DNA from: Myxococcales bacterium | GTDB lineage: Bacteria > Myxococcota > B64-G9 | Direction of reading: 5' to 3' | DNA length: 47,631 bases | Assembly: GCA_027031935.1 (NCBI GenBank) | Contig: JALVPF010000093.1 | Span: 1 to 47,631, forward strand | Shown: in pieces, positions 8,969 through 46,771 of the stretch | Layout of the letters: the number at the start of each line of letters is the position of its first letter | Numbering within the stretch: the stretch's first letter is position 1 | Notes under the pieces: generated by a model | What the model saw: only the letters and a program-made list of their open reading frames with translations | What the model was told of the DNA's origin: nothing | Database searches by the model: none | Translations under genes and position numbers: made by a program

Positions 8969-9059
8969 TCTGAGAGTCCAAAAAACTACAGATTCTTCAT
9001 ATTATCTCGAGTTGCGAATCGAGTTAGGGTTTGCATTTTCAATGGACCGGGTGTTACGA

Positions 9060-9088: not shown

Positions 9089-9111
9089 TTGACGCGGCCT
9101 GAAAGGAACCA

Positions 9112-9552: not shown

Positions 9553-9579
9553 GACTCAAAGCCGGGTGGGGTGACAAAC

Positions 9580-12717: not shown

Positions 12718-14129
12718 CAGGACTGGACCCACTGGCCAGCAATGGTTCATCCGTTTTGCAACGGAGATTCTCCCTTGGTGAACTTGTTGACGCATCTTCC
12801 TTTCGTGAGGTCTGCTCAAGTTATGCCGAGTTATTCCGTATAAGCTTCAAGGTATTCGATTCCGACGGTCAATTGTTGGTGGACGCAAAAGGTAACAGGG
12901 GCGATCTGTGCGCGTACGTACGACAACTTCCAAAGGGTAGAAGCAGCTGCACCAAGGAAGTCACCACCATCAGAGAAAAGGCCATGGCAGCAGACAAGCT
13001 GTCGTACTTCGATTGCTTTACCGGTCTCAGGTACATTATTGCACCCATAAAGCATGAAGGCGACGCCCTGGGATCGGTTGTTTATGGACCATACCGACCT
13101 CAGGGCGTAAAAATGCCGGATTTGGCAAAATTGGACGCAAAGGTAAATCCTGAGACGATCAAACGACTGCAGGCAAGAACTCCCGCTGCCGCCGAAGAGG
13201 TTGCCAAAAGAGTTGTGGACCACCTCGTTCAGGTAATCGAAGTGATTCTTTACACCGGTTACAAGCAAATACTTACTTCCAGACTTCACTTCGAGGCTGT
13301 GACCTCCAGTTACGAAGAGCTGCAAAGAAAGAACAAGCAGCTAAGGGATTCCTTCGAACGCCTAAAGGAGTTGGACAAGCTGAAAAGCAGTTTTCTTGCG
13401 ACCGTTTCTCATGAACTGCGAACTCCATTGACGTCGGTAATCGGTTACAGTGAAATGCTCATGGAGGGTCTGGCGGGCAAGCTGAACGAAGAACAGATGG
13501 AATACGTAAAAACCATAATGGAGAAAGGCGAAAACCTACTCTCCCTCATCGCCAGCATACTGGATTTCTCAAAAGTGGAGTCTGGCAACCTGCGTCTTGC
13601 AAGGAAGCTGACAGATGTAAAATCAGTAGTAAATGAAGCCATGTCCACCGTAATACCCATTGCCCAGAAGGGACAAATAAATTTGATTTCTGAGGTATCT
13701 TCCGACCTGCCGCAGATCAATATGGATGGAGAGAAAATCAGGCAAGCCATTATAAATATCCTTGGCAATGCCGTGAAATTCAATAAACCCGGAGGCCAGG
13801 TCAAGCTGAAGGCGAACACCATCAAGGTTCCCAAAAAAATTCAAAAGGACGATTTGATACCGGCAGCCTTCGCTCCTCCGGATGAATCCTTCCTGCAGAT
13901 TTGTATCACCGACACGGGCATAGGAATTCCAGAGGATAAGCTCTCGAAGGTGTTCGACTCCTTTTACCAGGTAGACGGATCATCGACGAGGGAATATGGG
14001 GGAACAGGGCTGGGACTTGCTATTTCGAACAGCTACATAACTGCACACGGTGGACACATAGAGCTGGAAAGCGAGCGAGGCAAGGGCTCTTCCTTTACCA
14101 TCTATATTCCCATGGAGACCGTTCCATGA
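12714..14129 (+). CDS. Soluble sensor histidine kinase with an N-terminal PocR-like sensory domain
   Basis: No TM segment is present. The PocR-like block is CAYVRQLPKGRSSCTKEV...YFDCFTGLRYIIAPIKHEGDALGSVVYGPY. HisKA is SFLATVSHELRTPLTSVIGYSEML; HATPase_c is NAVKFNKPGG...DTGIGIP...GGTGLGLAIS. ATGA overlap with the GTPase gene. Confidence 0.9.
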   Translation: MTGLDPLASNGSSVLQRRFSLGELVDASSFREVCSSYAELFRISFKVFDSDGQLLVDAKGNRGDLCAYVRQLPKGRSSCTKEVTTIREKAMAADKLSYFDCFTGLRYIIAPIKHEGDALGSVVYGPYRPQGVKMPDLAKLDAKVNPETIKRLQARTPAAAEEVAKRVVDHLVQVIEVILYTGYKQILTSRLHFEAVTSSYEELQRKNKQLRDSFERLKELDKLKSSFLATVSHELRTPLTSVIGYSEMLMEGLAGKLNEEQMEYVKTIMEKGENLLSLIASILDFSKVESGNLRLARKLTDVKSVVNEAMSTVIPIAQKGQINLISEVSSDLPQINMDGEKIRQAIINILGNAVKFNKPGGQVKLKANTIKVPKKIQKDDLIPAAFAPPDESFLQICITDTGIGIPEDKLSKVFDSFYQVDGSSTREYGGTGLGLAISNSYITAHGGHIELESERGKGSSFTIYIPMETVP

Positions 14130-20400: not shown

Positions 20401-22281
20401 ATCATCACAGGTGTTGCTGTCATTTGCCGTGTTGACACAACCCTGGTTCGCCACACAGGAATCGTCCGTACAATCGTTGTTGTCATTGCAATCGAGTGTA
20501 CCGGCACCGGCCTGACAGGTTCCACCCGAACAGGTATCCCCGGTTGAGCAAGGATCACCATCATCACAGGGTGCCGTGTTGTTGGCAAACACACATCCAG
20601 TCGCAGGTACACAGGAATCGTCCGTGCAAGGATTGGAGTCATCACAGGTCAATGTTCCGGCACCAGCCTGACAGGTTCCACCAGAACACACGTCACCAGT
20701 TGTACATGCGTTGCCATCATCGCATGGTGCGGTGTTGTTAGCATGCTGACATCCAGATACGGGATCGCATGTATCCGTAGTGCATGGGTTACCACTATCG
20801 CAGTTCAGTGCAGTGCCTGCCACACAAGAGCCGGCAGAACAGGTCTCGGTACCATTGCAAACGTTTCCGTCATCGCAATCCGAGTCGTCACCGCAGGTAT
20901 TGCAACCAGGGTCCTGTGCATCCGAAAGCTGGTTGCAATTGTTGTCAACACCATCTGAACACACCGGATCACCGGCTGGACCTTCGAATGCTCCCGGGTT
21001 AATGGCAGCCACATCATCGTTACAGTCGTCACCACCACAATTTTCATCGATGTAACCATCGGAATCCGCATCCTTTGGAAGACCAGAGCATACCCCGTTA
21101 GAGCAAGTGTCGCCGGTTGTACAGCTATCACCATCGTCACATGGGGAGGTATTGTAGGTGTGGCTGCAACCATTCACAGGATCACAGGTGTCATCGGTGC
21201 ACGGGTCACCATCATCACAATCAAAAGCTGCCTCACCGGACACGCACTGACCGGCCTGACAATGATCTCCATCCGTACATGCGTTTCCATCGTCACAAGA
21301 AGCTGTGTTGTTGGCATGTACACAACCCAGACCCTGTACACAGGAGTCATCGGTACAATCCTCGTGATCGTCACAATCCCTCGCAGCACCAGCCTGGCAT
21401 GCTCCATCAGCACAGGTATCACCCACTGTACAGTCATCTCCATCATCACAGGGGTCGGTGTTGTTTTCGTGTTGGCAACCATTTGCTACGTCGCATGAAT
21501 CAGTGGTGCAGTCATTGCCGTCATCACAGTTCAAGGCAGTGCCATGGCATGAACCCTGGTCACAGGCGTCGTTTTCCGTACACGCGTTCTCGTCGTCACA
21601 TGGAGCTATGTTGAAAGAATGAACACATCCTAAGGAATCATCACAGCTGTCCTCGGTACATGGGTTGTTATCATCACAATCAACGCTCGAATCTCCAACA
21701 CAAACACCGTTGGAACAATGGTCGTTGGAAGAACAAGCCTGTCCGTCGTCACATTCGTTGGAGTTGGGAGAATACACGCAACCAGAGGCGGGATCGCATG
21801 AATCATCCGTACATTCGTTTCCATCATCGCAGGTCAAGGCATCTCCGCCCACACAGGAGCCATTGGAACACACGTCGCCTATGGTGCAAGCGTTATCGTC
21901 ATCACAGGGCGCGCTATTGGGGATATAGACGCAGCCTTCGGAGTCATCGCAGGAGTCGTTTGTGCAAGGATTGCCGTCATCGCAACCAACAGCTGTCCCG
22001 GAACATACTCCATCGGAACATACATCGTTTTCAGAGCAAGCCTGACCATCGTCACAGGGAGCCGTGTTGTTTGTGTTTACGCATTTTCCCTGCACACATG
22101 TATCATCCGTACACGGGTTTTCATCGTCGCATTGTGCAGCAGATGTACACTCCACATTACCACCATCACCACCGTCTATGCCACCATCTTCAGGGTTGGT
22201 GCCTCCATCGGAACATCCACCAATGGCCAGCATCAAGGCCAAGGTCAGTCCCATGAATAAACTGGTTGATAGGCGTCTCAT
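17443..22281 (-). CDS. Giant (1612 aa) Cys-rich lipoprotein ending in a matrixin-like (metzincin, M10-type) zinc metalloprotease domain
   Basis: Lipobox LAIGGCS. Residues ~45-750 hold about 11 tandem ~51-aa Cys-rich units (CDDGNPCTxDSCdxxxGCVxxxNxxxCDDGnACTxxDxCxxGxCxG), interrupted twice by MopE-like putative metal-binding motifs (DSDGY..DDC(N/D)D....INPGA.E.CDG(V/I)DNNCN). A duplicated ~330-aa beta-rich two-domain module follows, then a CARDB-like domain (NISIQNFTATLVGNDIQYHWDVVNTGNVDV...), then VATHEEGHLLGLDHP...ATMYY (HExxHxxGxxH plus Met-turn, nt 17554..17586). Confidence 0.9.
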   Translation of the reverse strand: MRRLSTSLFMGLTLALMLAIGGCSDGGTNPEDGGIDGGDGGNVECTSAAQCDDENPCTDDTCVQGKCVNTNNTAPCDDGQACSENDVCSDGVCSGTAVGCDDGNPCTNDSCDDSEGCVYIPNSAPCDDDNACTIGDVCSNGSCVGGDALTCDDGNECTDDSCDPASGCVYSPNSNECDDGQACSSNDHCSNGVCVGDSSVDCDDNNPCTEDSCDDSLGCVHSFNIAPCDDENACTENDACDQGSCHGTALNCDDGNDCTTDSCDVANGCQHENNTDPCDDGDDCTVGDTCADGACQAGAARDCDDHEDCTDDSCVQGLGCVHANNTASCDDGNACTDGDHCQAGQCVSGEAAFDCDDGDPCTDDTCDPVNGCSHTYNTSPCDDGDSCTTGDTCSNGVCSGLPKDADSDGYIDENCGGDDCNDDVAAINPGAFEGPAGDPVCSDGVDNNCNQLSDAQDPGCNTCGDDSDCDDGNVCNGTETCSAGSCVAGTALNCDSGNPCTTDTCDPVSGCQHANNTAPCDDGNACTTGDVCSGGTCQAGAGTLTCDDSNPCTDDSCVPATGCVFANNTAPCDDGDPCSTGDTCSGGTCQAGAGTLDCNDNNDCTDDSCVANQGCVNTANDSNTCDDGNGCTSSDHCSGGICVGTGISCDDSNICTDDSCDPQLGCVHTNNSEACNDGDACTENDMCVGGNCTGTIRDQDSDGYGDGTGACTGDDCDDSNPDINPGATEACDGIDNNCNRIIDEGCASCDTAVPEGLLQIDNGFPLTSYGLNAGDEAINAFFINSSSYNAISVDVYFYDFSGGSGNAQGSYSLHVYADNDGLPGTELASAGPDTVTEAWDAPHTFTLSSPVGFTNGELLWVGVRSEADQTTNLFLPLMDGGIADTYAGGVLKQQSDGQYYGVLGNWLIRVQGCGEGPWLELSDHAESQTPLPAGGSITSTATLKNRGFDDSATVSGVLSSGAPEMVLTSDTANFGTITAGATAAGSPAYGISADATAYGIYGMVLNSSDGPNSWVTSYGVYVQGSGCVTENHVLATDNDTPKYIIPPAAGDETGNYFVVDSTSFAMTSADVSFLYNNSSGSGTGTFRLKVYTYQAGYPDKLIYQSNWQSVTANGGGTPTVETFSLPTPLTFKTGDTFFVVVESQTDLSATDFAVLSDDGDTQNNSQMNGYLWDESEGTWSPIYSSFIIKVNGCQSTELVYDSLTSTPDPIQKGQSATLNITVKNDGAQDATGVTGTLSSSDPDVTVTTATRSFGTVSAGSTATANGFVINVSASADAFQYVLDLELTDGTTTWNDQVPIQLAGGTKNISIQNFTATLVGNDIQYHWDVVNTGNVDVINSFQVDLYTDRASAPGVGDAGDWSDNPTGLAVGESKPYDLVWQNAPNGSYTAWVQADTNDAIAESDETDNVDGPQPVTVGDATTFELLDPPRKWFDSDMPVGFRFVANNYEGDLGQTSTRDAIRNGFDQWQNVATATITFNELSQASAGSGGFINDGYNTMSFEDPDGELASGVLGATLPIYNSQTTTTNGVTFYRITDADIVFNDGVPFVRNGDPCSNQMDLDGVATHEEGHLLGLDHPDVFNATMYYAVDYCDMSKVSLAESDINGVSFIYPQ
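20032..22149 (-). repeat. Tandem coding repeats (~153-nt period) encoding the CDDGNxCT Cys-rich units of the giant metalloprotease
   Basis: Spacing of equivalent Cys residues is 50-52 aa (C100, C151, C202, C252, C303, C355; then C494, C546, C598, C649, my own residue count). Adjacent units at nt ~20500-20700 share long near-identical strings, e.g. g(t/a)(a/t)ccggcacc(g/a)gcctgacaggttccacc. Confidence 0.85.
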
Positions 22282-22826
22282 TTTGAACCTCCTGCAAACA
22301 AGGCCCGGACTTCATCAAGAGAGTGAAGGCTTACACCAGCCGGGTTTGAGCCCACAGCCTTTACTCCTGCTTCGGGCATATCCCGGATGACCATCTCCCT
22401 GCCTGTCTTGGCATCCGTAAACACCTTGAATTTGCCCATGTACAGTCCGATGGTCAAATACCCTTCTCCGTCCTTGCGGGGCTCCAAGAAAACCAGCACC
22501 TTCTCGCCCTTGGCAAACTTGGGAGCGCCATCGAGTTTGGCAAAGGTGTCACCCACCCTGCCTCCTATGGTTTTGACCACTACCGTACCCATCTTTGCGG
22601 GACCCTTGAGGATCTCCGTGGGGTTAATCCACACGCGTGTATGAATTTTTGTCTTGTCAGCATTCCAGCTGGCTTCCACCCGGTTTACTTCTCCCACCAA
22701 CACCACCTTCGCCACAGGCGCCATCTGGTCGATATCCATATTGACCACTACCGTGGCTGATGCCGGTAGCGCAATTGCCAGCGTCACTGCGGCGATGGCT
22801 ATTGAGACTTTCAGGTAACTACGCAT
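22278..22826 (-). CDS. Small secreted beta-rich protein of unknown function, translationally coupled to the giant metalloprotease gene
   Basis: 182 aa with signal peptide MRSYLKVSIAIAAVTLAIALPASA|T. A 4-nt overlap with the start of 17443..22281 is present. I recognise no family. Confidence 0.7.
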   Translation of the reverse strand: MRSYLKVSIAIAAVTLAIALPASATVVVNMDIDQMAPVAKVVLVGEVNRVEASWNADKTKIHTRVWINPTEILKGPAKMGTVVVKTIGGRVGDTFAKLDGAPKFAKGEKVLVFLEPRKDGEGYLTIGLYMGKFKVFTDAKTGREMVIRDMPEAGVKAVGSNPAGVSLHSLDEVRALFAGGSK

Positions 22827-22901
22827 AACGTCTTCTCCTTGAAAAATAATATTTGTTCGGATTTATTCCATTGGATTCAAACTCTTGATACCAACTTCAA
22901 A

Positions 22902-22927
22902 AGCCGGGGCGCCCCTGCGCCCCGGCT
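22902..22927 (-). terminator. Rho-independent terminator downstream of the 1271-aa gene
   Basis: Perfect 11-bp GC-rich stem AGCCGGGGCGC / GCGCCCCGGCT with a 4-nt loop. On the minus strand it is followed by TTTTG, and it lies 15 nt after the stop at 22942. Confidence 0.8.
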
Positions 22928-22941
22928 TGATTTCGATGGCC

Positions 22942-25900
22942 CTAGTAAGCAACACCTGTATTGAACATGTCAGCGTGGAACTGAGGGAAGGACCCAGCAG
23001 ACTCAGCAGGGCCTGCCGTAGCCAGGATCGTTATGAGATTTCCATCTTTTGGATCCACGACGAGAATGTAGCCGTATCCAGCCTGAGAAGAAGCGATCCA
23101 GGTGGGAGAAGAATGTATCCACGCATCATCAGGTTGTGAAGTAGATATGGATGCATACCACTGTAAGGATCCATCCATCCCATAATTGAGTATGTATGCG
23201 CCGGCATGCAGGGTGGCTGAACCGTCATCGCCAAGGCCAAAGCTGCTCATCAACATGCCAAACCCACCAACAGCACCAGTTACCGAAGATCCATCATAGC
23301 TCAACAAGTAGAAATCTCCATCAGGCGACCTTGAAGTCATTCTAATCAAGGTATTGCCGTTTCCGTCAGGCATGGCCACAGGTGAACAGCCATCAACGTC
23401 CTTGGTGGCTCCACCGTTAGATATATCAATTGGGAACCCTGGAGCCGTGCTGCCGTCATCCAGGTTATATGCGTAGAGTATACCATCATCACAACCTATG
23501 TAGACCACACCGTCTGCTATGGCAGGAGACGAGTTGCATCCACCGCCAGTGGCAGCGCTTTCCCAAAGCACATCCCCGGCATCGACACAAGGAGCAGAGC
23601 CTGTGGCAGTCGTACAAAGGGCCACTACCTTGCCAGTGCCGACACCACCCACTCCGAACACCACCACCTCGTCAGATGCCGTGGTGAATCCGATGGAAGG
23701 AGAGCTGTCCACCCATGCGCCACCAGTATCGTAGTTGAACCTCTGCGTGCCGTCAGAGTTGAAGCCGAAGAAGCCTGCGCCCTGTGTACCGAAGAAGACA
23801 GCGCCATCTGTCAAACTCACTGCAGGAGTTGATTGGACCGTGTTACCAGCAGCGAGAGGACCAACCGAAATATTCAGGTCTATCGTGAAAGGATCAGGAT
23901 CATCTGCGGTAATATTAAGAGTATACCCATACACACCATTGTCAGTACCCACATAGGCTACATTTGGATCGGCAATCAAATCCATGGCTACCGAGCTTTT
24001 GGCATAAACACCACTTACCGGCAAATCATCATCCGATTCCGCAAAACCTGGTTTGGTCACATTCACCCATCCATAACTATCAATGGTCCACACGTAGCTG
24101 GCAGAATCCATTGCTGGTGTAGACGTTCCACCGTAAACATAAGACTGGGCGACAACCAGGCCAGGACCTTCCCAGCCGGGAGAGCAGTTGTTCAGTGTGC
24201 GACGGTAGAAATCCACTGCGTTATCATCCGTGTCATCATGAGCCGCATCACGGCTGAGGCAATACATCACGCCACCAGAGGGATCCGCAGCAGGTGCCGC
24301 GTGAGTGTAATCCGCACCTTCTCCTGCGAAGTTATCCGTATCGCTGAATGTATCGTATGCCAGGGCGTCTACCACCTGCGTGCCCAACCATCTTACCTGT
24401 ACGCTGTCAGGACCATTCTGCAGGTCCACGTCATTGGTCAGAAGGTCAGCCTCTGCCACCAGCGCCGCATCTCCGTTGGGCCGGGCTATTACGAAATGAC
24501 CGTCTGAAGGCATGGTGTATCCATCCAGTGGAATAACCACATAATCGGGGTTGGACGCACTCGAGTTACCATTTACCCCCACCACTGAGTAGCCGGTGAG
24601 ATCCTGGCCTGCGGTTCCATAGAGTTCTATGAACAGGAAGTTTCCATCCTGGGTATCGGTGCCTTCGTTGTTATACAGCACCTCGTTTATCAACACCGTG
24701 CTCGGGGCCGTGTCTGAGAAACAAGAGGCGTTGTAACAAACCGGGGTCGCACCGGAACAAGTTGTCTGGGTTCCCCATTCCAGGCATTCGTCCGAATCGA
24801 AGTTGGCAGCGCATACCTCGACGGTGTTTCCATTACACTGTGTATCGTTCAAGGCAGGGCAATCATCTGTGCATACAACCTGGCAACCCGTGACGCCGTT
24901 GCCATCATCTCCACACTGCTCGCCATAGCCACAGGCCAGGGGAGTGCTCAGGTCAAGACAGCTGTCCGAATCATATTCACCACAGATGCGGTAGGTCTTG
25001 CCCGTAGGGTCATCAGCAGAGCATACTATAGTCCCATTGGTATCACACTCATCGGAACAGGTAGCAGCGCAGACACCGTTGGAGCAAACTTCTCCATCGG
25101 GACAAGCGACCGGATTATCCGTGTTCCACTCCATGCATGGGTCCCCATCCCATTCACCACACTCCTCTGTGCCCGAACCATCAGGTGTACATCTCAAGGA
25201 ACCAGTGGGTAGACAATCATCTGTACAATCCAACACGCACTGAGAAGTGGACGGGTCACAAGCATAATACTGCTGGCAATTGACCGGGGTTCCCCACTCC
25301 AGGCAAGGATCGGCATCCCAGTTGGCAGCACACACCTGGTAGCCGCTCAGGTCGTTGGTGCACTGCTGGGCGCCACCGGAAGGACACTCATCCGAACAGG
25401 TCAATACACAAGTTGCGGAAGCGGGATCACAGGCATAAAAAGCATCGCAGTTTGTCACATCAGACCATACCCAGCAATCCGCATTGGGATCCTGGGGATC
25501 AGCAACTGCCACACACTCGTGCCATCCGCCTCCTGAGCACTCTCTGTCACCTTCGTTGCACTGGGTGACGCACACCTCTGAGCACTGGCCACCTATGCAG
25601 GTCTGATTGTCATCACAACTGGTAATATCCGCGCTCCACTCCAGGCAGGAGTCGGCATCATAGTTACCGCAGGTGCGATACCCATTGCCATCACACACAT
25701 GGGCACCAGCAGTGTCACAATCATTGGTGCAATTCTCCACGCAATTGCCGTTTTCACATGTGTAACCACCCTGACAGGAAGTAAAAGAACCGAACTCCAG
25801 GCAAGGATCGTTATCGAAGTTACCACACACTTCCCAACCTACCTGACCATTGATCTCGTTGCAGCGCTTTTCACCTGTATCGCACTCGTCGCTGCAGGCA

Positions 25901-26757
25901 GTCTCGCAAGCGCCGTCCTTGCAGATCTCGTAAGCCGCACAGTTGGTAACACCTGACCAATCAAGACAAGGATCTGCATCATAGCTTCCACATTGCCTGT
26001 AGCCGTTGCCTTCGCAGATTTTCTGGTTGGGTGTACAATCATCAGTACACTCTGACGAGCAGGTGCCTGCCGAGCAGGTCTCGCCCTGCGGACACAGGGT
26101 CAAACCACCCCATTCCAGACACGAGTCACCATCGAAGTTACCACAGACCATGAAACCATTGTCCGGGGGCGCTGCGCAGGTTCGATCACCTTCTGCAGGG
26201 CACTCGTCTACGCACGATTCCACACAAGCACCCTCCACGCATGTCTGTCCAGTCGGGCAATTGTTCAGCTCGCCGTATTCCAGGCAGTCGTCGTCATCGA
26301 AGTTGCCACACACCCTGAATCCGTTTGCGCCATTTGTATCGCAAACCTTGGCATCTTCGCGTGTGCACTCATCACTACAGGCCGTGACACACTCGCCATC
26401 CTGACAAACCTGGTCTACACCGCAGCTTATGGCAGGTGTCCACTCGAGGCAGGTGTCGCCGTCGGGATCGCCACATTCCTGATACTGGGAGGTGGATCCG
26501 GGCGCACACTGTTTCTCGCCCATCATGCACTCGTTCTGACACGCTACACATTGACCGGCAGCACAATACTGGCCGGCCATGCAGGAATTCCCACAGGCCC
26601 CGCAGTTATCCCGGTCTGTAGCCGTATCAACACACTTGTCAGCGCAACTCGACTGCCCCACGGGACAATCTGTACCGGAATCGCCGGAGCAGCCACTGGA
26701 GACAAAGGCTCCCACAGCCAAAACGCCAAGAAAGAAATTCATCAGTTTGGACTTCAT
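22942..26757 (-). CDS. Giant (1271 aa) Cys-rich lipoprotein: 11 x six-Cys repeats, a lamin-tail (LTD) domain and C-terminal PQQ-like beta-propeller repeats
   Basis: The start is moved to the ATG at 26757 (MKSKLMNFFLGVLAVGAFVSSGCSG, lipobox), with GGAGG 9 nt upstream. The track's 26805 start adds 16 non-signal residues. Repeat consensus: C(S/T)DEC..G...C...G..(Y/F)..CGN(F/Y)D.D.CLEW.....C....C..G.C. LTD: LINEVLYNNEGTDTQDGNFLFIELYGTAGQDLTGYSV. Propeller-like: GVVYIGCDDGILYAYNLDDGS, AVFFGTQGAGFFGFNSDGT. Confidence 0.9.
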   Translation of the reverse strand: MKSKLMNFFLGVLAVGAFVSSGCSGDSGTDCPVGQSSCADKCVDTATDRDNCGACGNSCMAGQYCAAGQCVACQNECMMGEKQCAPGSTSQYQECGDPDGDTCLEWTPAISCGVDQVCQDGECVTACSDECTREDAKVCDTNGANGFRVCGNFDDDDCLEYGELNNCPTGQTCVEGACVESCVDECPAEGDRTCAAPPDNGFMVCGNFDGDSCLEWGGLTLCPQGETCSAGTCSSECTDDCTPNQKICEGNGYRQCGSYDADPCLDWSGVTNCAAYEICKDGACETACSDECDTGEKRCNEINGQVGWEVCGNFDNDPCLEFGSFTSCQGGYTCENGNCVENCTNDCDTAGAHVCDGNGYRTCGNYDADSCLEWSADITSCDDNQTCIGGQCSEVCVTQCNEGDRECSGGGWHECVAVADPQDPNADCWVWSDVTNCDAFYACDPASATCVLTCSDECPSGGAQQCTNDLSGYQVCAANWDADPCLEWGTPVNCQQYYACDPSTSQCVLDCTDDCLPTGSLRCTPDGSGTEECGEWDGDPCMEWNTDNPVACPDGEVCSNGVCAATCSDECDTNGTIVCSADDPTGKTYRICGEYDSDSCLDLSTPLACGYGEQCGDDGNGVTGCQVVCTDDCPALNDTQCNGNTVEVCAANFDSDECLEWGTQTTCSGATPVCYNASCFSDTAPSTVLINEVLYNNEGTDTQDGNFLFIELYGTAGQDLTGYSVVGVNGNSSASNPDYVVIPLDGYTMPSDGHFVIARPNGDAALVAEADLLTNDVDLQNGPDSVQVRWLGTQVVDALAYDTFSDTDNFAGEGADYTHAAPAADPSGGVMYCLSRDAAHDDTDDNAVDFYRRTLNNCSPGWEGPGLVVAQSYVYGGTSTPAMDSASYVWTIDSYGWVNVTKPGFAESDDDLPVSGVYAKSSVAMDLIADPNVAYVGTDNGVYGYTLNITADDPDPFTIDLNISVGPLAAGNTVQSTPAVSLTDGAVFFGTQGAGFFGFNSDGTQRFNYDTGGAWVDSSPSIGFTTASDEVVVFGVGGVGTGKVVALCTTATGSAPCVDAGDVLWESAATGGGCNSSPAIADGVVYIGCDDGILYAYNLDDGSTAPGFPIDISNGGATKDVDGCSPVAMPDGNGNTLIRMTSRSPDGDFYLLSYDGSSVTGAVGGFGMLMSSFGLGDDGSATLHAGAYILNYGMDGSLQWYASISTSQPDDAWIHSSPTWIASSQAGYGYILVVDPKDGNLITILATAGPAESAGSFPQFHADMFNTGVAY
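24718..26541 (-). repeat. Eleven tandem ~52-58-aa six-cysteine coding repeats
   Basis: Residues ~73-680 of the 1271-aa protein by my count. Each unit starts C(S/T/V/Q)(D/N/T)(E/D/Q)C and contains the CGN(F/Y)D-D-CLEW core. Confidence 0.8.
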
Positions 26758-27059
26758 CACTTTTGGTCCTCCATTTTTTTGATTTTGTCTGCAATAGTCA
26801 TGCAAACGTTTAGGTATCCAGTAAAGATTTCACACAACCTAGCACCTTTCCACACATTTAAGCAATGCAAAGATTTCAGGGGATGGAGACGGAAAAGATC
26901 CGGGGTTTCTTCATTTTTTCCGTTTTTTTTCAATTTCGGATATTTCAACGAGCACTTTCCGGACAGTTCCTTTATATCCAGCAACCTTTAAGGCTTGAAG
27001 ATACAGACCATTGTGCTACCGTCTGCCTTCACATGGAAACCACAGAACAAGGAGCACCC

Positions 27060-29234
27060 ATGGACACTCCTGAACAAAAAGGATCCAAGCTTCTGCCCGC
27101 AAATGCGTATACCAAGCTGGCGCCAGGAGAAGAATATCAACCCATAGTCCCTGCCTCGGATACTCGCGCTGAGGTCACTCCATGGTCCATTGGCCTTGGA
27201 ATCGTGATGGTGATGATTTTCACTGCAGCATGCGTGTACATAGCCCTCAGGGCTGGAAATGGCATCGAGGCATCCATCCCCATAGCCATTCTGGCCATCT
27301 TTTTCGGCATGATGAAAAAGACCAAGAGTACCATCCTTGAAAACGTGATGGTCCAGAGCGTGGGCCAGGCATCGGGAGTGGTGGCGGCAGGGGCCACCTT
27401 TGTAATACCTGCCTTGTACATAAACCGTCTGGACGTGGCCTGGTGGCAGATTTTTCTTGCCTGTACCATTGGGGGCATCCTGGGTGTCGTGCTCATCATT
27501 CCACTGAGAAAATACTTCGTCAAAGAACTCCATGGCGAGCTGCCATTCCCGGAAGCTACGGCAATAAACGAGGTCCTGGTAACCGGAGAGAGTTCAGCCG
27601 GCGGTGCAGGAAAAATTCTCATCATGGCCTTTTTGCTTGGTGCCGGATACGACTTTTTGGCAGAAGCCTTCCACCTGTGGAACCCGGCCATCTCCACAAA
27701 TGACATCCTTGGATCAGTGGGTCAGTCCATGGAGAGCATACGCATGGAGATACAAATAGCAGGCCTGGCTGCCCTGTTCGGTCTCGGTTATATTATCGGG
27801 ATAAAATACGCTTCGATCATAGCCTCTGGTTCGGTGCTCGCCATGCTCGTGATGGTGCCCATGGTTTACCTGTTTGGAAAAGACGCGGGCTCCTTTTCTT
27901 ATGCAGGTGGTGTTTTCGATATCGGCACCATGAGTTCCGGGAAAATCTTCGCGAGCTTCGTAAAACCCATTGGAATCGGTGCCATAGCCATAAGCGGACT
28001 CATAGGAATCATCCGCATGGGAGACATAGTGCTCGGCTCCGTGACCCTTGGATTCAAGGGTCTTTCGGGAAAGGGGAAGAAGAAGGAATCCGAGCGCACC
28101 CAGCTGGACATGGCCCCAAGAAACGTGTTGCTCATCCAGATCGTATCCACCCTGGCCATGGGTATACTGTTTTACATAGTAGCCTCGACGACATCGGTGG
28201 GAGGCGAGTCATACAGCGCCTCTGACAGCCTGATGTATGCGGTTGTGGGCATGGTCGCCGGCTTCCTGCTGTCTTTTCTGTTTACGCCGGTTGCCGCCCA
28301 GGCCATCGCCATCGTGGGAGTCAATCCAGTCTCTGGCATGACCCTCATAACAGTCGTGCTTGCCATAGGCTCCATGATCCTCTTCGGCCTGACGGGTAAG
28401 GCCGGCATGATAATCGCACTTGTGGTGGGGACCGCCGTATGTACCGCCCTGTCCACCTCTGGAGCTTTGATCTCCGATTTCAAGGTGGGATATTGGATAG
28501 GATCCACTCCACGGGCACAGCAACGATGGAAATTTTTGGGAATAGTCGTTGCCGCATTGGTAGTGGCATTCGTCATTCCCCTGATGGACCAGGCTTTTCA
28601 TTTCGTAATCCAGGACCCCACCACACAACAATTCATCTCCAACGAATCGGTACTTCCGGCCCCACAGGCAAACATGTTGGCAGCAGTATCAAAGGGACTC
28701 ATGGAAGACCCATCCCTGCAGCCATGGCTTTTGTACGGCCTGGGAGGCATCGTGGCAATCATGTTGTACATGGCAGGGGTGCCCATGTTGGCCTTTGCAC
28801 TGGGCATGTACCTGCCCATCTCCATCAACATGGCCGTGTTGCTCGGAGCAGCCACAGCGTGGATCATCTCCAGGACGGGAAAAAGCGACGAGGTAAAAAA
28901 AGCCAGGGCAGAACAAGGCACACTCATCGCATCTGGAATGATGGCAGGAGCTGCCATTTTCGGAATACTCACTGCCGTGATGCGCTTGCCTGACATGGGC
29001 GCGCTCATACAGTACATCAGCGTTGGGGTAAAATTCGAGGTGGTCGATGGGCTATTGAAGGAGACCGCCAGCGAATGGTTCAAAGGCAGCACAGGTCAAC
29101 TTGTAAGCCTGGGCATGCTCGTGATCTTGGCACTGGCCTGTTATGCCTTGGCGCGACTGGGTGCAAACTGGCAGTTGAAAAAAAATCCGTTACCGCCAAA
29201 GCAGGACGAAGCACAAACAGATTCTCAAGAGTAG
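27060..29234 (+). CDS. OPT-family oligopeptide transporter
   Basis: Polytopic membrane protein of ~724 aa with an OPT-like N-terminus (LPANAYTKLAPGEEYQPIVP...EVTPWSIGLGIVMVMIF) and many TM helices. The start is placed at the ATG at 27060, which is preceded by AAGGAG at 27049..27054. The ATG at 27033 and the track start at 26865 are alternatives. Confidence 0.8.
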   Translation: MDTPEQKGSKLLPANAYTKLAPGEEYQPIVPASDTRAEVTPWSIGLGIVMVMIFTAACVYIALRAGNGIEASIPIAILAIFFGMMKKTKSTILENVMVQSVGQASGVVAAGATFVIPALYINRLDVAWWQIFLACTIGGILGVVLIIPLRKYFVKELHGELPFPEATAINEVLVTGESSAGGAGKILIMAFLLGAGYDFLAEAFHLWNPAISTNDILGSVGQSMESIRMEIQIAGLAALFGLGYIIGIKYASIIASGSVLAMLVMVPMVYLFGKDAGSFSYAGGVFDIGTMSSGKIFASFVKPIGIGAIAISGLIGIIRMGDIVLGSVTLGFKGLSGKGKKKESERTQLDMAPRNVLLIQIVSTLAMGILFYIVASTTSVGGESYSASDSLMYAVVGMVAGFLLSFLFTPVAAQAIAIVGVNPVSGMTLITVVLAIGSMILFGLTGKAGMIIALVVGTAVCTALSTSGALISDFKVGYWIGSTPRAQQRWKFLGIVVAALVVAFVIPLMDQAFHFVIQDPTTQQFISNESVLPAPQANMLAAVSKGLMEDPSLQPWLLYGLGGIVAIMLYMAGVPMLAFALGMYLPISINMAVLLGAATAWIISRTGKSDEVKKARAEQGTLIASGMMAGAAIFGILTAVMRLPDMGALIQYISVGVKFEVVDGLLKETASEWFKGSTGQLVSLGMLVILALACYALARLGANWQLKKNPLPPKQDEAQTDSQE

Positions 29235-29252
29235 CAAGCCTGGGAACATACA

Positions 29253-30491
29253 GTGAGCATTCTTACACTGAATTGCGGATCGTCTTCCGTCAAATACTCT
29301 CTTTTCTCTCCGGCCTCAAAAGCTTTTGTGTGTCGCGGCATAGTGGAGAGAGTGGGTACAGAAAAAAGCGTCTTGACCCACGAGTACCAGGGACGCAAGG
29401 TGTCGAGGGAAAAAGCCTTATCGGATCACAGCGCAGCGGTGGAGATGGTCCTAGATATACTAACCGAGGGCAGTCAGGCACCAATATCCGACAAGTTGTC
29501 TATAAAAGGAGTGGGCCACAGGGTTGTACATGGTGGAGAGAGCTTTTCTCGCTCGGCCCTCGTCACTCCAGAGCTTATCGGTGCAGTGGAAAAAGTCTCC
29601 GACCTCGCCCCCTTGCACAACCCCCCAAACCTGGCAGGGATCAGGGCCGCCATGGAACTTTTGCCCCATGCTCCCCACGTCGCGGTTTTCGACACGGCTT
29701 TTCACCAGTCCATGCCGCCAGAAGCCTTCACCTATGCGCTTCCCCGTCAATGGTATGAAAAGTACGGTATCAGAAAATACGGATTTCACGGTACAAGTCA
29801 TCTATACGTTTCCCACAGGGCAGCTTCCTTGCTGGGCAGACCATTGTCACAGCTCAAGCTCATCACCTTGCACATAGGAAACGGCGCTTCTGCATGTGCG
29901 GTGCTGGAGGGCAAATCAATAGACACATCCATGGGCTTTACTCCCCTGGAGGGCCTGGTCATGGGCACCAGGTGCGGATGGATAGATCCGGCAATCCCGC
30001 TTTGGCTCATGGGCAAGGAGGGGATAAAACCAGAGCACATGGATCGACAACTGAACAAGCACAGCGGCGTGTTGGGAATTACCGAAAAATTCACCGACAG
30101 GCGGGACATACTCAAGGCTGCAGATGATGGCGACAACCTATGCCAACTGGCCCTGGAAATTGAGACTCGCACCATCAAGAAAGTCATAGGCAGTTACTCC
30201 GCGCTCATGGGTGGTCTGGACTGCGTGGTGTTCACGGCAGGGGTTGGAGAAAACGCTCCGGCCATAAGGGCTGCGGCATTACAAGGCCTGGAATTTTTGG
30301 GTATCGAACTGGATGACGACAAGAACACACAAGCGGTGGGCGGCAAAGTGGAGATGATCATTACAAAACGCGAAAGCCCGGTCACCGTGGCCGTTATCCC
30401 CACAAACGAAGAGCTGGTCATAGCAGAAGACACCCTGGCCATCATAGAAAAGAAATTTGACCATGCAGATTTCTCATATTCCTTCTCCTGA
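29253..30491 (+). CDS. ackA: Acetate kinase
   Basis: ILTLNCGSSSVKYSLF, GHRVVHGGE, APLHNPPN, FHGTSH, HIGNGASACA and TMGFTPLEGLVMGTRCG are classic AckA motifs. GTG start. Confidence 0.95.
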   Translation: MSILTLNCGSSSVKYSLFSPASKAFVCRGIVERVGTEKSVLTHEYQGRKVSREKALSDHSAAVEMVLDILTEGSQAPISDKLSIKGVGHRVVHGGESFSRSALVTPELIGAVEKVSDLAPLHNPPNLAGIRAAMELLPHAPHVAVFDTAFHQSMPPEAFTYALPRQWYEKYGIRKYGFHGTSHLYVSHRAASLLGRPLSQLKLITLHIGNGASACAVLEGKSIDTSMGFTPLEGLVMGTRCGWIDPAIPLWLMGKEGIKPEHMDRQLNKHSGVLGITEKFTDRRDILKAADDGDNLCQLALEIETRTIKKVIGSYSALMGGLDCVVFTAGVGENAPAIRAAALQGLEFLGIELDDDKNTQAVGGKVEMIITKRESPVTVAVIPTNEELVIAEDTLAIIEKKFDHADFSYSFS

Positions 30492-35134: not shown

Positions 35135-35755
35135 TTGAGCACATACAATCGCAAAGACTCCTATTACAAGAAAGCGAAGGCCGCTGGCTATCGCTCCAGG
35201 GCGGCATACAAGCTCCTGGAACTCACCAAGAGAGAAAAACTCTTCGCCAAGCAAATGAAAGTGCTGGACCTGGGGTGTGCTCCCGGTGGTTGGCTGCAGG
35301 TAGCAGCCAAACTCGTCGGCCCAAAAGGACTGGTTGTGGGAATAGACAGGCTCGAGGTGCAGGCTCTCGATCTTGCCAACGTGAAGGTCATACAGGGAGA
35401 CATTACAGACAGCAACACCAGGGAAAGCTTGACGAAAGCTCTCGGAGGCAAGGCCGGGCTGGTGCTTTCGGACATGGCTCCTGACACCAGTGGAGTCGGC
35501 TTTGCCGACCATCATCAATCCGTACAGCTAGTACGAATGGCCGTTCAAATTGGTGCACAGACCCTTGTACCTGGAGGAAAATTCTGCGCCAAGGTTTTCG
35601 AAGGAGCAGAACTCAATGAGCTGATTTCGGAGATAAAGAAAGACTTCAAGAAGGTTCGCAGGGTCAAGCCCAAGGCCACGAGGAAAGGCTCCAGAGAGCT
35701 GTACCTGATCTGCACGGGTTTCGGTCTGGCGCAACCAAATCTCCCACATTATTGA
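35135..35755 (+). CDS. rlmE: 23S rRNA (uridine-2'-O)-methyltransferase RlmE/FtsJ
   Basis: YYKKAKAAGYRSRAAYKLLEL, VLDLGCAPGGWLQVA, VLSDMAP and K.FEG are typical RlmE motifs. TTG start per the ORF track. The last ~6 codons lie inside repeat copy 1. Confidence 0.9.
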   Translation: MSTYNRKDSYYKKAKAAGYRSRAAYKLLELTKREKLFAKQMKVLDLGCAPGGWLQVAAKLVGPKGLVVGIDRLEVQALDLANVKVIQGDITDSNTRESLTKALGGKAGLVLSDMAPDTSGVGFADHHQSVQLVRMAVQIGAQTLVPGGKFCAKVFEGAELNELISEIKKDFKKVRRVKPKATRKGSRELYLICTGFGLAQPNLPHY

Positions 35756-35885
35756 ATCAGATTTCCCAAATCGCTTGTGAGGTCACGGAGATGCAAGGAA
35801 TCGTCCGCAGTCGTGGATTCACCACGTCGAGGACAGATTCCGAAGCATCGACACAGAGATCGCAAGCGAGGTGGGAAATCTTGGA
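35736..35885. repeat. Structured 150-nt repeat, copy 1 (direct repeat of 43811..43975)
   Basis: Aligned by eye to copy 2: 5 substitutions plus one 15-nt indel over ~150 nt. Terminal inverted segments AGATTTCCC..CGCTTG / CAAGCG..GGGAAATCT can close a long stem. It overlaps the rlmE stop codon. Confidence 0.85.
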
Positions 35886-43776: not shown

Positions 43777-43810
43777 TCTCTACATCTCAGGCAATTTCCC
43801 CTGATTTCCT

Positions 43811-43975
43811 CAAATCTCCCACACTATTGAATCAGATTTCCCGGATCGCTTGTGAGGTCACGGAGATGCAAGGAATCGTCCGCAGTCGTGGATTCACCAC
43901 GTCGAGGCCTCACCTTACCGAAACAGATTCCGCAGCATCGACACAGAGATCGCAGGCGAGGTGGGAAATCTTGGA
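43811..43975. repeat. Structured repeat, copy 2 (165 nt; carries a 15-nt insertion relative to copy 1)
   Basis: Same sequence as 35736..35885, except T>C, AA>GG, A>C, A>G and an inserted CCTCACCTTACCGAA after ..CGTCGAGG. It lies between atpC and the AT-rich ATPase/Toprim-like module. Confidence 0.85.
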
Positions 43976-44035: not shown

Positions 44036-44608
44036 CTATGATTTCGCCAGCGCGTCATTGACAAGATCTCTCACGCCGGTAAGGAAAAAATAAAAACTCC
44101 GAGACTTGTTTTTCTCACCAAGAATCGTACCAATTGCACGTGATCCGGATATTTTCTGATAGACCCCCTCGGTCTCCTTCGCCAGTTCTTCTGACGGATT
44201 CCCAAGTCTGTCCGGTTCTCTGAATTTGCTTTTTTCCTGTTTTTGGGCAATACCACGGATATCGAGTCCCTTCTCGACAGCTTCCAGGTCTCCCAGGTAC
44301 CAGCTTTCTATCTCATGGCAGGCGATGCGAACGAGGGTTTCAGGATGATTTGCCTCCTGGCAGAGTTCAAGCAACCTCTTCTTTACATCTTTGCAATCTT
44401 CAGAATCCTGGTCTCTCAGAACGATAAAGTAGCTGTCAGGCTTTTTCCAGTGACGCATTTTCCGTACTAGCTGTTTTTCGAGATCCTGTTTGCCCTCGAA
44501 AACGATAAACCTTAGTTCTAGTGATTGCATGGGAAGAAAACGAGGCAGCAATACTTTGAGTAATGCCTCTGCTGATTTTTCTTCAAGAAAAAATACAAGT
44601 GTGATCAT
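44036..44608 (-). CDS. Small Toprim-like protein (DUF4276-like), partner of the upstream AAA ATPase
   Basis: 190 aa. The N-terminal strand with acidic residues MITLVFFLEEKSAEALLKVLLPRFLP and a downstream YFIVLRDQDSED (DxD) fit the Toprim Glu + DxD pattern and my recollection of DUF4276 family proteins. ATGA overlap with the ATPase gene. Confidence 0.75.
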   Translation of the reverse strand: MITLVFFLEEKSAEALLKVLLPRFLPMQSLELRFIVFEGKQDLEKQLVRKMRHWKKPDSYFIVLRDQDSEDCKDVKKRLLELCQEANHPETLVRIACHEIESWYLGDLEAVEKGLDIRGIAQKQEKSKFREPDRLGNPSEELAKETEGVYQKISGSRAIGTILGEKNKSRSFYFFLTGVRDLVNDALAKS

Positions 44609-45798
44609 TCGGGATCCGCCCCCTTGAAGAACCCCTGTTTCCAGAGGTATCCCATTTGATCACCCTCCATCACGTAAGTCTTGATTTGTTCATCGTCTCC
44701 TGCCCGATAAACCTGTGCGTACCCGTCTCCGCCCCTGGCGAGCCAAAATACCTCTTCGAGTCGAACAGCGTTGAGGAAATCAGGGGAATGAGTTGAGACG
44801 AAAACCTGGCCACCACGCCTGGCATAGTCACGAAACTCCTCGGCAAGTTCATGAAGCAAGCCAGGGTAAAGCTGGTTTTCCGGTTCCTCGACGCACAGCA
44901 AAGGATGGGGATTTGGATCGTTGAGCAAAATCAAGTAGGCAAACATCTTGATGGTTCCATCAGAGACATACCGATCTACGAAAGGCTGTTTGAATGAACG
45001 ATCTTTGAAGCCAAGCAGCAAACGACCATCCTCTGTAAGAATTGGCTCCACGTTTTCGATGCCAGGCACCCGGCGTTTCATTGTAGCAATAATCTTGTCA
45101 AAAACCTCGCGATGATTGTCATACAGGTTTCGAGCAACTAGTTGGAGATTGTCTCCGCTGTCTGAAAGGTGCTCATCATAGCCAACAGCGTCCTTTGTTC
45201 CTCTTGCCTTGTCTATGTGAAAGTCTGAAACATGCCAGTTTTCTATCAGTTGACGAAAAGTGCTTGCCGCCTTGAACTGGGAGAACTGTCCTAGTCCCTT
45301 GACTGCCAGAATATCAGGTGAGTCCAGAGACTGATCCTCACGAGTTAATTTTTCATCAGGCTTGTTGAAGTCCTCTTCGTTGGAAATCGCATAACCCCTT
45401 CCATGCTGGAAATCTAGAAAGTGAAAAGGTGATCCGTGTCTGCCGCGCTTATAACGAAGCACTTCACGTTCCACAGTGATATCATTGTCTTTTTGACCAA
45501 TACAAAGAAGATAGGTTACAAGACGTTCCACCCTGGCGATATTCATGCGAAACTTGATTTCGATTTCTATCTTCTGTTCATTGGATCCACGACTGACAAG
45601 TTCGCTCATACCTCCTCGTTTTTGAATGGCACTTTTGACATTGTATGTGAGGCAATCTTTCAAAAAACCGAATACATCGAAAAGGGTGGTCTTTCCGCTT
45701 CCATTGGCGCCAACGAAAACACAAAACTCGGGTAAATCTTGCAAGTCAACATTGTTGAATGCTTTGAAGTTTTTTAGTCGAATGGATTCAATTTTCAT
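44605..45798 (-). CDS. ABC/SMC-type AAA ATPase (AAA_21/AAA_15-like, OLD/AriA/AbiLi-like ATPase module)
   Basis: 397 aa. N-terminal IESIRLKNFKAFNNVDL...VFVGANGSGKTTLFDVFGFL (Walker A, K36), signature-like YVSDGTIKMFAYLILL, Walker B HPLLCVEEPENQLYP, and H-loop QVFVSTHSPDF. GGAGGG lies 8 nt upstream of the ATG. Confidence 0.85.
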   Translation of the reverse strand: MKIESIRLKNFKAFNNVDLQDLPEFCVFVGANGSGKTTLFDVFGFLKDCLTYNVKSAIQKRGGMSELVSRGSNEQKIEIEIKFRMNIARVERLVTYLLCIGQKDNDITVEREVLRYKRGRHGSPFHFLDFQHGRGYAISNEEDFNKPDEKLTREDQSLDSPDILAVKGLGQFSQFKAASTFRQLIENWHVSDFHIDKARGTKDAVGYDEHLSDSGDNLQLVARNLYDNHREVFDKIIATMKRRVPGIENVEPILTEDGRLLLGFKDRSFKQPFVDRYVSDGTIKMFAYLILLNDPNPHPLLCVEEPENQLYPGLLHELAEEFRDYARRGGQVFVSTHSPDFLNAVRLEEVFWLARGGDGYAQVYRAGDDEQIKTYVMEGDQMGYLWKQGFFKGADPE

Positions 45799-45928
45799 CT
45801 ATAGGGCCCTCCAGGGTCCACATGATCGCCTGTATTTGGCCGTATATCTAAATTGCTGCGATCAAGAACCTCTATAAATTTCCAAGCTTGTGCATAGTAG
45901 TTCAGTTTTGTTCCAAGCTCAAAAATTT

Positions 45929-46771
45929 TCAAAGCTCGTCTTCAGCCAGTACGACGATGGTGTCCTTGGGCCCAATCTCTATCTCCCGGTTTTTATCCAC
46001 GTTCAAGATTACACCGAAGTTTTCCCTTGGGCTATATGCCAGCTCGGCCTTGCGAAAACCCAGGCAGATCTCGTCTCGCTTCAGCACCTGTCCAATCAGG
46101 TCTGCGAAGGTCAGTTTGATGGGTAATGACCCGAAGTATAGACTTGCCGGTTTCAGGTAGATCTCGCTGCCTTCCTCCTGGAAGATATCATCGTAGAGAT
46201 CCTTGATGCGCGGTTCTTCGCTGAGTTGGGCAAAGATCATGGTGATTAGCTTGTTACTGATGATGAAATCGTCCACGTTGGTCTGGGTGATCAGCTCCTG
46301 GTTTTCCGAGTTCAGGACCTGGGTGATCAGCTTCGTGTTTATCTTGTGAACCGAGCTATCCTTCAGGATCTTTCTGAGCAGCAATAAAATCACCAGCGTC
46401 TCAGAATCTGTCCTCTCAGGTGAACTCACCCCTTCTTCCTGTGAGAGAATTATGACGTTGTCGTATATAAAGGGTTTGAGAGCCTGCAGGTCGGCAAACA
46501 CCATGGGGTTTGCGTTGACAAGCTCTATTCTCAGGCTGGTTTTTTCTCTCCGCAGCCTCTGAACCTCAGAGACCACTGCCTCGGATGGATTGTGTACCAC
46601 GATGTCTATTTGCGAACCATTGAGCAAATAGTCGGAGTATTGGTCAACCACTATATGAGCTATACCGTGCCAGCCGAGAATGAGTTCTTTCTCTCTATGT
46701 TTTTCAAGGGCCACCTTTTTATAGGGCAACTGCCGCGGCTTGCAAACAGGCTCACGATTGAAAGGGATCAT
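45929..46771 (-). CDS. RCK/TrkA-like regulatory domain protein resembling the C-terminal half of CASTOR/POLLUX-type ion channels; possibly a 5'-truncated remnant
   Basis: 280 aa: KELILGWHGIAHIVVDQYSDYLLNGSQIDIVV...VIILSQEE...DSETLVILLLLRKI...LITQVLNSENQELI...DDFIISNKLITMIFAQLSEEP...IYLKPASLYF...LTFADL...EICLGFRK. There is no TM or pore region, no Shine-Dalgarno, and an in-frame stop 6 codons upstream of the ATG. Confidence 0.55.
   Translation of the reverse strand: MIPFNREPVCKPRQLPYKKVALEKHREKELILGWHGIAHIVVDQYSDYLLNGSQIDIVVHNPSEAVVSEVQRLRREKTSLRIELVNANPMVFADLQALKPFIYDNVIILSQEEGVSSPERTDSETLVILLLLRKILKDSSVHKINTKLITQVLNSENQELITQTNVDDFIISNKLITMIFAQLSEEPRIKDLYDDIFQEEGSEIYLKPASLYFGSLPIKLTFADLIGQVLKRDEICLGFRKAELAYSPRENFGVILNVDKNREIEIGPKDTIVVLAEDEL

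Follow-up and report, generated by a model that had tools for sequence, protein, structure and literature searches.

A solitary HEC-01 pair of an ABC-type ATPase and a DUF4276 protein, a candidate anti-phage module between housekeeping operons of a Myxococcales bacterium

Introduction

What is the role of two overlapping minus-strand genes, one encoding an ATP-binding cassette (ABC)-type ATPase and the other a small protein with a Toprim-like acidic pattern, that lie between housekeeping operons of a Myxococcales bacterium? The pair occupies positions 44036..45798 of a stretch of 47,631 nucleotides (nt; contig JALVPF010000093.1, assembly GCA_027031935.1), the whole of which was analyzed and is referred to here as the window. 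A preliminary description of the window had proposed that the two genes form an anti-phage defense system. The analysis presented here places them, almost certainly, in HEC-01 (Hma-embedded candidate 01). The copy in the window is a solitary, horizontally acquired HEC-01 module, and the evidence taken together is probably best explained by such an acquired module, in which an OLD-like ATPase and Toprim protein are split over two genes.

The novelty that the preliminary description implied does not stand. The architecture was published as HEC-01 by Payne et al. (2024; 10.1101/2024.01.29.577857), who defined it by an ABC-type ATPase together with a TOPRIM protein with an OLD-like metal site; DUF4276 had, together with RloB, already been published as a new member of the Toprim superfamily (PMC12065111); and the PARIS paper shows the family in its AAA15/21 tree, where DUF4276 partners are included (PMC11464382). 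HEC-01 is thus already catalogued, and the locus is another member that adds little and offers no special handle on mechanism. The accompanying remark that no mechanistic characterization is known still holds, as in the literature searchable no paper gives a substrate, a trigger or a structure for HEC-01. For the window, the outcome is the annotation of a catalogued candidate defense pair, horizontally acquired, between housekeeping operons.

The ATPase and its DUF4276 partner

The larger protein, of 397 amino acids (aa), is an ABC/SMC-type ATPase, judged from its full motif set and the ABC head fold of its predicted structure. Pfam assigns it to AAA_21 (E = 1.9e-33) and AAA_15 (E = 1.1e-23). 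Its motifs comprise the Walker A sequence GANGSGKT at residue 30 (with K36), Q156, the signature SDGTIKMFAYL at residue 279, the Walker B sequence LLCVEEPE at residue 300 (E304-E305, an EE variant of the usual DE) and the H-loop STHSP at residue 335 (H337). The columns of Walker A, Q156, the signature, Walker B and H337 are all invariant in the family alignment; the alignments made for the two proteins comprise 25-26 sequences each. The AlphaFold2 (AF2) model of the ATPase reached a pLDDT (predicted local distance difference test) score of 81, and Foldseek matched it to the OLD protein of T. scotoductus (6P74), Rad50, SMC heads, PtuA, GajA and the retron Eco8 effector, all with a probability of 1.0. 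At the sequence level, similarity to solved OLD proteins does not extend beyond the P-loop region (E = 7e-6 to 6e-4).

One segment of the ATPase, at residues ~190-220 (window positions 45120-45230) and reading SDFH..ARG.KD..G...HLS..GDNLQL, is nearly invariant, yet it is the least confidently modeled part of the protein (pLDDT 34-54). Contact with the Toprim partner or with a substrate is a candidate role for it.

The smaller protein, of 190 aa, matches DUF4276 in Pfam (E = 1.7e-12; 48.4 bits against a cut-off of 30.2), and this is its sole Pfam match at E values up to 1, with no match to DUF4435 or RloB (PF13707). This bears out the earlier view that the effector belongs to a family other than DUF4435 or RloB. 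The AF2 model, built on the 26-sequence alignment (pLDDT 96.8), consists of a core of four beta-alpha units, with predicted strands at residues 2-8, 30-36, 59-66 and 92-96, followed by a helical C-terminal half. The only significant PDB matches found for it by Foldseek come from 6NK8, both chains of which represent the Toprim region at the C-terminus of B. pseudomallei OLD (E = 1.7e-4, probability 1.0, template-modeling score 0.56/0.55 over the whole length). The predicted structure places the protein in the Toprim superfamily, with three alpha/beta layers and a four-stranded parallel sheet.

The acidic residues of the small protein fit this placement. Two motifs had been quoted from it, FFLEEKSAE at residue 6 and LRDQDSED at residue 64. 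In the family alignment E9 (after beta-1), D66 (at the end of beta-3) and E99 and E101 (both after beta-4) show no variation, and conservation reaches at least 90% at E10 and D68. These residues constitute the Toprim E...DxD pattern with an extra acidic pair, E99/E101. All motifs quoted in the preliminary description, for both proteins, were found at the expected residues and on invariant or nearly invariant columns of the family alignments, for which reason they are not chance occurrences. A search of PDB sequences with the DUF4276 profile returned no meaningful match, and therefore no structure has been solved for any member of the family, which comprises 1,925 clusters at 50% identity in the profile search, 365 of them with E up to 1e-30.

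Membership in HEC-01 and relation to known systems

Membership in HEC-01 was judged from profile hidden Markov model matches and gene adjacency. In PADLOC-DB v2 the ATPase matches the HEC-01 model PDLC04144 with E = 2.2e-212 and 703 bits, residues 1-397 aligning to positions 1-395 of the 395 of the model, and a second HEC-01 ATPase model, PDLC04182, with E = 6e-132. The small protein matches PDLC04143 over its full length (E = 5.3e-78) and a further partner model, PDLC04202, with E = 2e-32; mad4 follows only at E = 0.01, and no AriB model is among its PADLOC matches. The two genes lie on the same strand and overlap by 4 nt. The weaker PADLOC matches of the ATPase are AriA (E = 9e-32; 109 and 90 bits), mad3 (E = 2.8e-29) and AbiLi (E = 1.7e-22; 78 bits). 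The proposal of a defense pair made up of an ABC-type ATPase with a Toprim-like DUF4276 protein is accordingly upheld by the Pfam assignments, the full-length HEC-01 models and the match to the OLD Toprim fold.

A point of nomenclature concerns the PADLOC labels of the best-matching model pair, which are swapped relative to the defining paper and to the other HEC-01 models: 'HEC-01A' (PDLC04143, 190 positions) denotes the DUF4276 protein and 'HEC-01B' (PDLC04144, 395 positions) the ATPase.

The pair resembles HEC-01 as defined in having two components, an ABC ATPase and a small TOPRIM-like protein, and a predicted OLD-like metal site. Furthermore, members of its clade are embedded in Hma loci, as are those of the defining paper, whereas the copy in the window is solitary and lacks this embedding. 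Several better-known systems are built on related components. The OLD family (P2 Old, BpOLD, TsOLD, Gabija GajA and the retron Eco8 effector) provides the best structural matches, 6NK8 for the Toprim part and 6P74 for the ATPase, and shares the E...DxD acidic set; one HEC-01 member, moreover, is carried by a P2-like prophage, where it looks like a gene of lysogenic conversion, comparable to old in P2. OLD proteins are, however, single polypeptides. The pair was not assigned to the single-chain OLD proteins, since its ATPase and Toprim parts are two open reading frames (ORFs) and no fusions occur among the top 150 family representatives.

PARIS is likewise a two-gene system of an ABC ATPase (AAA_15/21) and a Toprim effector, and by analogy its logic of a sensor scaffold and a released nuclease is plausible for HEC-01. 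The two differ in the effector, which is DUF4276 in HEC-01 and DUF4435 in AriB, and in the ATPase, for which the HEC-01 model outscores AriA by ~600 bits. PARIS is often borne by phages or satellites, whereas the HEC-01 family is almost absent from viral collections. Membership in PARIS was rejected in the absence of an AriB-type DUF4435 effector and because AriA is not the best match of the ATPase.

AbiL (AbiLi/AbiLii), RloA/RloB and the Menshen NsnC variants with DUF4276 share the combination of an ABC ATPase with a small partner of the Toprim superfamily, and pairs of the RloAB type, like DUF4276 pairs, occur embedded in type I restriction-modification (R-M) operons. The HEC-01 partner is not RloB and the AbiLi match is weak, so that membership in AbiL/RloAB was rejected for want of an RloB/AbiLii-type partner (PF13707); Menshen differs in that the window copy has no NsnA or NsnB context. 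In MADS, the ATPase is homologous to Mad3, and Mad4 is a DUF4276 homologue (PMC12065111), but the relationship is distant. The ATPase scores 121 bits with the NCBIfam MAD3 equivalog NF047739, below its cut-off of 420, and the mandatory MAD6-8 and methylase are not in the locus, nor is any other mad gene (methylase, helicase, DUF499 ATPase or others) in the window. On these grounds the pair was not assigned to MADS.

Distribution, inheritance and conservation

HEC-01 is widespread and unusually conserved. Searches for protein relatives returned 2,895 matches for the small protein and more than 8,000 for the ATPase, and ATPases labeled as coming from very different phyla are 70-82% identical to that of the window. 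A scan of one genome per species, covering 185,579 species genomes, matched at least 559 species; the locus statistics given here rest on the best 80 of these matches (64-78% identical), with further loci to a total of 82. The best 80 span Thermodesulfobacteriota, Myxococcota, Planctomycetota, Actinomycetota, Verrucomicrobia, Cyanobacteria, Bacteroidota, Bacillota, Spirochaetes, Campylobacterales, Yersinia and others.

The two genes are inherited as a unit. The DUF4276 gene lies directly downstream of the ATPase gene in 77 of 80 genome loci, and the identities of the two proteins co-vary across loci (r = 0.64). The preliminary description had reported two overlapping ORFs joined by an ATGA stop/start overlap, and both were found exactly where it had placed them. 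Such an overlap implies translational coupling of the ATPase and DUF4276 genes, and it recurs in related loci, with 4 nt in 54 and 1 nt in 12 of the 72 loci (66 together).

The pair also differs in composition from its surroundings. Its guanine-plus-cytosine (GC) content of 0.457 falls at the 0.9th percentile among same-sized segments of the window, and its GC at third codon positions (GC3) is 0.46. The foreign composition claimed earlier therefore holds for the pair itself, which is indeed lower in GC, but not for the reference values of 60-62% given for atpA and atpD, which measure 0.55 (GC3 0.64-0.65). Across the family, 63 of 68 loci have a pair that is lower in GC content than the flanks, with a mean difference of 7.4 points, and the GC content of the pair tracks that of the host (r = 0.83).

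Between loci there is no shared synteny, flank homology or genomic position. DNA similarity among the 80 and more loci starts exactly at the ATG of the ATPase gene and stops within the DUF4276 gene; no cassette ends were found, the flank matches seen across loci tracing to shared Hma or R-M neighbor genes, and neither integrases nor transposases are among the commonest nearest-neighbor families. Conserved residues show, at their fourfold-degenerate sites, an identity of 0.19-0.42, the level of random sequence, even in comparison with the closest relative (82% protein identity). Recent horizontal spread was rejected on this basis as the source of the high identity. As synonymous sites are saturated, the protein identity reflects strong purifying selection over a long divergence.

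Genomic contexts of related pairs

The three closest relatives are, like the window copy, solitary among unrelated housekeeping genes. In 22 of the 82 loci, Hma or R-M genes accompany the pair, and in 20 of those they are directly adjacent and co-directional. Loci of the Hma/MADS type carry a DUF1156 methylase gene immediately upstream and a DUF499 ATPase gene downstream of the pair, and other modification contexts comprise HsdS, HsdM and HsdR of type I R-M systems and N6_N4 methylases. The nearest neighbors are enriched for these families in both Pfam and PADLOC, the PADLOC matches including HmaB (seven times), MTase_II (six), the type I specificity subunit (four) and mad5 (four). As a control, those genes of the same loci that lie at distances over 7 kb have ordinary housekeeping functions.

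Two further contexts are a plasmid and a prophage. A copy in Synechocystis PCC 6803 (SGL_RS00110 and SGL_RS00115; locus at record positions 17880-30168) is carried by plasmid pSYSM, 38 nt downstream of a cysteine desulfurase gene, in an island that also holds a DUF4007 gene, a phosphorothioation (PT)-associated methyltransferase, RelE/HigA, NTase/DUF86, and HNH and LAGLIDADG nucleases. The second is on the IMG/VR contig UViG_3300025711_000083 (positions 7384-10864), from a P2-like temperate phage, where the pair (68% identity) lies between the repressor gene and the integrase gene on the same strand. The position resembles that of lysogenic-conversion defense genes. In P2 itself, old occupies such a lysogenic-conversion position.

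Association with defense genes, the lack of which had been named beforehand as speaking against the proposal, was found in the 22 loci with Hma or R-M genes, in the pSYSM island and in the P2-like prophage. HEC-01 recurs inside DNA-modification systems of four kinds and is also found in the lysogeny module of a P2-like phage and on pSYSM; these occurrences make the family tractable for mechanistic work, and the pSYSM copy, residing in a model organism, offers a convenient genetic system.

At the locus of the second-closest relative, whose ATPase is 81% identical, the pair stands between two genes for 394-aa AAA_14/DUF4143 ATPases on the opposite strand (8210-9394 and 12030-13214). AAA_14/DUF4143 is found among the nearest neighbors of other loci in 3 of 132 cases.

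Possible function and competing explanations

We consider an anti-phage role of the pair likely, and give an even chance to a more specific scheme in which the ATPase gates a nuclease. In this scheme the ATPase and the DUF4276 protein would form a complex in which the ATPase, whose heads would dimerize on ATP, acts as sensor or regulator. A phage-derived cue, for which an anti-restriction protein, a DNA end and unmodified DNA are all conceivable, would lead the ATPase to license or release the Toprim subunit. The latter would bind Mg2+/Mn2+ through E9, D66 and D68 (with E99 and E101) and cut nucleic acid, thereby stopping the infection; by analogy, the substrate could be DNA, as for OLD/GajA, or tRNA, as for PARIS AriB. 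Experimental support for a defense role comes from a cold-seep HEC-01 representative, with which E. coli B was reported to be protected from one or more of the phages T7, T5 and T4 (PMC12881386), and from MADS of P. aeruginosa, where resistance drops when the homologous mad3 or mad4 is deleted (10.1101/2023.03.30.534895).

A number of observations weigh against this interpretation. In the study of Payne et al., HEC-01 did not protect E. coli MG1655 deltaRM from the phages tested (10.1101/2024.01.29.577857), and the protection reported for the cold-seep system rests on a single spot assay with a different representative, for which only the AAA_21 domain is named (PMC12881386). Regarding the complex, no ATPase-DUF4276 fusions occur among the top 150 family representatives, all of which are stand-alone proteins of ~120-314 aa, and a physical interaction is therefore without Rosetta-stone support. 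An identity of 65-82% across phyla, with saturated synonymous sites, is far above what we would expect of genes engaged in an arms race. The family is rare on plasmids (10 records) and nearly absent from phage collections, with a single contig in IMG/VR. Finally, the window copy lies outside any defense island, as all other large ORFs of the 47.6-kb window are housekeeping genes.

Other explanations draw on the same evidence. We regard it as unlikely that the pair, rather than being autonomous, serves DNA-modification defenses such as Hma/MADS, type I R-M and phosphorothioation, either as their portable arm for nuclease action or 'restriction' or as a guard. In that role it would act on unmodified DNA, or fire upon inhibition of the modification system, and solitary copies would either pair with a methylase encoded elsewhere or be orphans. 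Such a role would account for the 20 of 82 loci in which the pair adjoins, in the same direction, genes for a DUF1156 methylase/DUF499 ATPase, HsdS/HsdM/HsdR or an N6_N4 methylase, and for the pSYSM pair just past the cysteine desulfurase gene and beside the PT-associated methyltransferase. It also agrees with further MADS genetics, in which mad5, encoding the methylase, tolerated deletion only along with that of mad2 or mad3, and plasmids from a mad3-deletion strain served as methylated stock (10.1101/2023.03.30.534895). These two results argue that Mad3 acts within the restriction function, and together with the embedding in modification systems these genetics keep the explanation alive. However, about three quarters of the loci, the window included, have no modification gene adjoining the pair, solitary pairs are intact and under strong purifying selection, and a stand-alone HEC-01 has been reported as protective (PMC12881386). 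Since the ATPase remains far under the MAD3 equivalog cut-off, the MADS genetics may moreover not transfer to this clade. A broader form of the idea, which we likewise hold to be doubtful, sees in the HEC-01 clade neither an independent abortive-infection pair nor a plain analogue of OLD, but a plug-in nuclease or guard cassette that serves several unrelated modification systems (Hma/MADS, type I R-M, N6/N4 methylases and phosphorothioation). A cassette of this kind could recognize something invariant, for instance DNA that lacks modification, an anti-restriction strategy used universally or a host component that is conserved, and an invariant target would explain the cross-phylum identity despite saturated synonymous sites. 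If this were true, solitary copies would read a modification whose source is encoded at another place in the genome, or respond to a conserved cue.

RecF-RecR is another partnership of an ABC ATPase with a Toprim protein, and a RecF-RecR-like function in the maintenance or repair of DNA, acting on host DNA structures and unrelated to defense, would suit the housekeeping-level conservation across phyla with saturated synonymous sites, the mostly chromosomal positions among housekeeping genes, the rarity on phages and plasmids, the resemblance of the ATPase to Rad50/SMC heads as well as to defense ATPases, and the one heterologous test without phage protection (10.1101/2024.01.29.577857). The conservation and the solitary chromosomal contexts leave this function a small probability, against which stand the patchy distribution (at least 559 of the 185,579 species genomes), the lack of a conserved genomic position, a GC content systematically under that of the host, the repeated embedding in defense operons and in a prophage lysogeny module, and the closest structural relative of the Toprim subunit, which is the defense nuclease OLD and not RecR. 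Very improbable, in our estimation, is a selfish addiction module of the toxin-antitoxin (TA) type, kept because its loss is toxic and without anti-phage benefit. The Pfam description of AAA_21 ties the domain to AbiEii/type IV TA systems, the two small, tightly coupled genes form a horizontally mobile module, and TA modules adjoin the pair on pSYSM; yet nothing resembling a labile antitoxin is evident, plasmids, on which addiction modules thrive, rarely carry the pair, its flanks have neither cassette ends nor mobility genes, and the complete, strongly conserved catalytic set of the ATPase suggests regulated enzymology rather than simple neutralization.

The locus and its surroundings in the window

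The features of the locus are collected in Table 1.

Table 1. Positions of the HEC-01 genes and associated sequence features in the window.
Feature	Position	Strand	Basis
HEC-01 ABC-type ATPase, 397 aa	44605..45798	-	ORF call, Pfam, PADLOC, AF2, Foldseek
HEC-01 DUF4276 protein, 190 aa, putative metal-dependent nuclease with predicted Toprim fold	44036..44608	-	ORF call, Pfam, PADLOC, AF2, Foldseek
ATGA stop/start overlap	44605..44608	-	read from sequence
Purine-rich AAGGGGG in the 3' end of the ATPase gene, ~10 nt before the DUF4276 ATG	44619..44625	-	junction sequence
Intergenic region upstream of the ATPase gene, presumed 5' untranslated region (UTR) and promoter	45799..45928	-	sequence

The purine-rich stretch ahead of the DUF4276 gene is, from its sequence, a possible internal ribosome-binding site for that gene. 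The ATPase gene is preceded by a Shine-Dalgarno sequence, GGAGGG, at 45807-45812, 8 nt ahead of its ATG. A promoter scan of the minus strand of the upstream intergenic region detected no sigma-70-like promoter, and at the DNA level the region is not homologous to its counterparts in related loci. Within it, the 9-nt sequence AGCTTGGAA is present twice, 31 nt apart, at 45880-45919 on the minus strand. The duplication could be an operator or promoter element, or due to chance.

The pair is flanked by the atp operon (atpC) on one side and, on the other, by a CASTOR/POLLUX-like ORF followed by speD. The remaining large ORFs of the window encode housekeeping functions, namely Lon, acetate kinase, an OPT transporter, a methyl-accepting chemotaxis protein, AMP-binding enzymes and a secreted peptidase. 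A search of metagenome contigs for an atpC-speD junction free of the pair, with AtpC as query, returned only one distant match (42%). The CASTOR/POLLUX-like gene upstream of the pair (45929..46771, minus strand) encodes a 280-aa RCK-domain protein and lies ~300 nt from speD. It had been described as possibly truncated, and this is supported by its alignment to residues 69-346 only of a 346-aa homologue (other homologues have 416-483 aa), from which it appears to lack its N-terminus. As a third component of the system the ORF was rejected, since its homologues and their contexts are unrelated and the closest HEC-01 loci have other neighbors.

A repeat element, also mentioned in the preliminary description, is real: positions 43811-43975 and 35736-35885 share 88% identity. 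The repeat is ~150-165 nt long, sharply bounded and intergenic (CAAATCTCCCACA...GGGAAATCTTGGA), and most of the difference between its copies lies in a 15-nt indel. Imperfect inverted repeats form its ends, and on the plus strand it contains a long hairpin (z = -3.4). The copy at 43811-43975 lies directly 3' of the HEC-01 pair. The element looks like a miniature inverted-repeat transposable element or a repetitive extragenic palindrome, and a search of the whole window against Rfam, the repeat included, gave no match.

A perfect inverted repeat of 18 nt connects 43796-43813, in the atpC-proximal intergenic region, with 44771-44788, in the H-loop codons of the ATPase gene (HSPDFLN; blastn E = 1.5e-4). 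Its flanks are not similar, and it is absent from all other loci compared. The idea that it descends from a second ATPase gene is not supported (blastx E = 0.09), and its absence elsewhere led to the rejection of a conserved RNA feature. It could allow the 3' UTR to pair with the coding region in a read-through transcript.

Unrelated to the pair, a 1,612-aa ORF at 17443-22281 (minus strand) combines Dictyostelium-type CTDC repeats with CARDB and a C-terminal matrixin (M10) peptidase domain, an unusual architecture for a large secreted protease.

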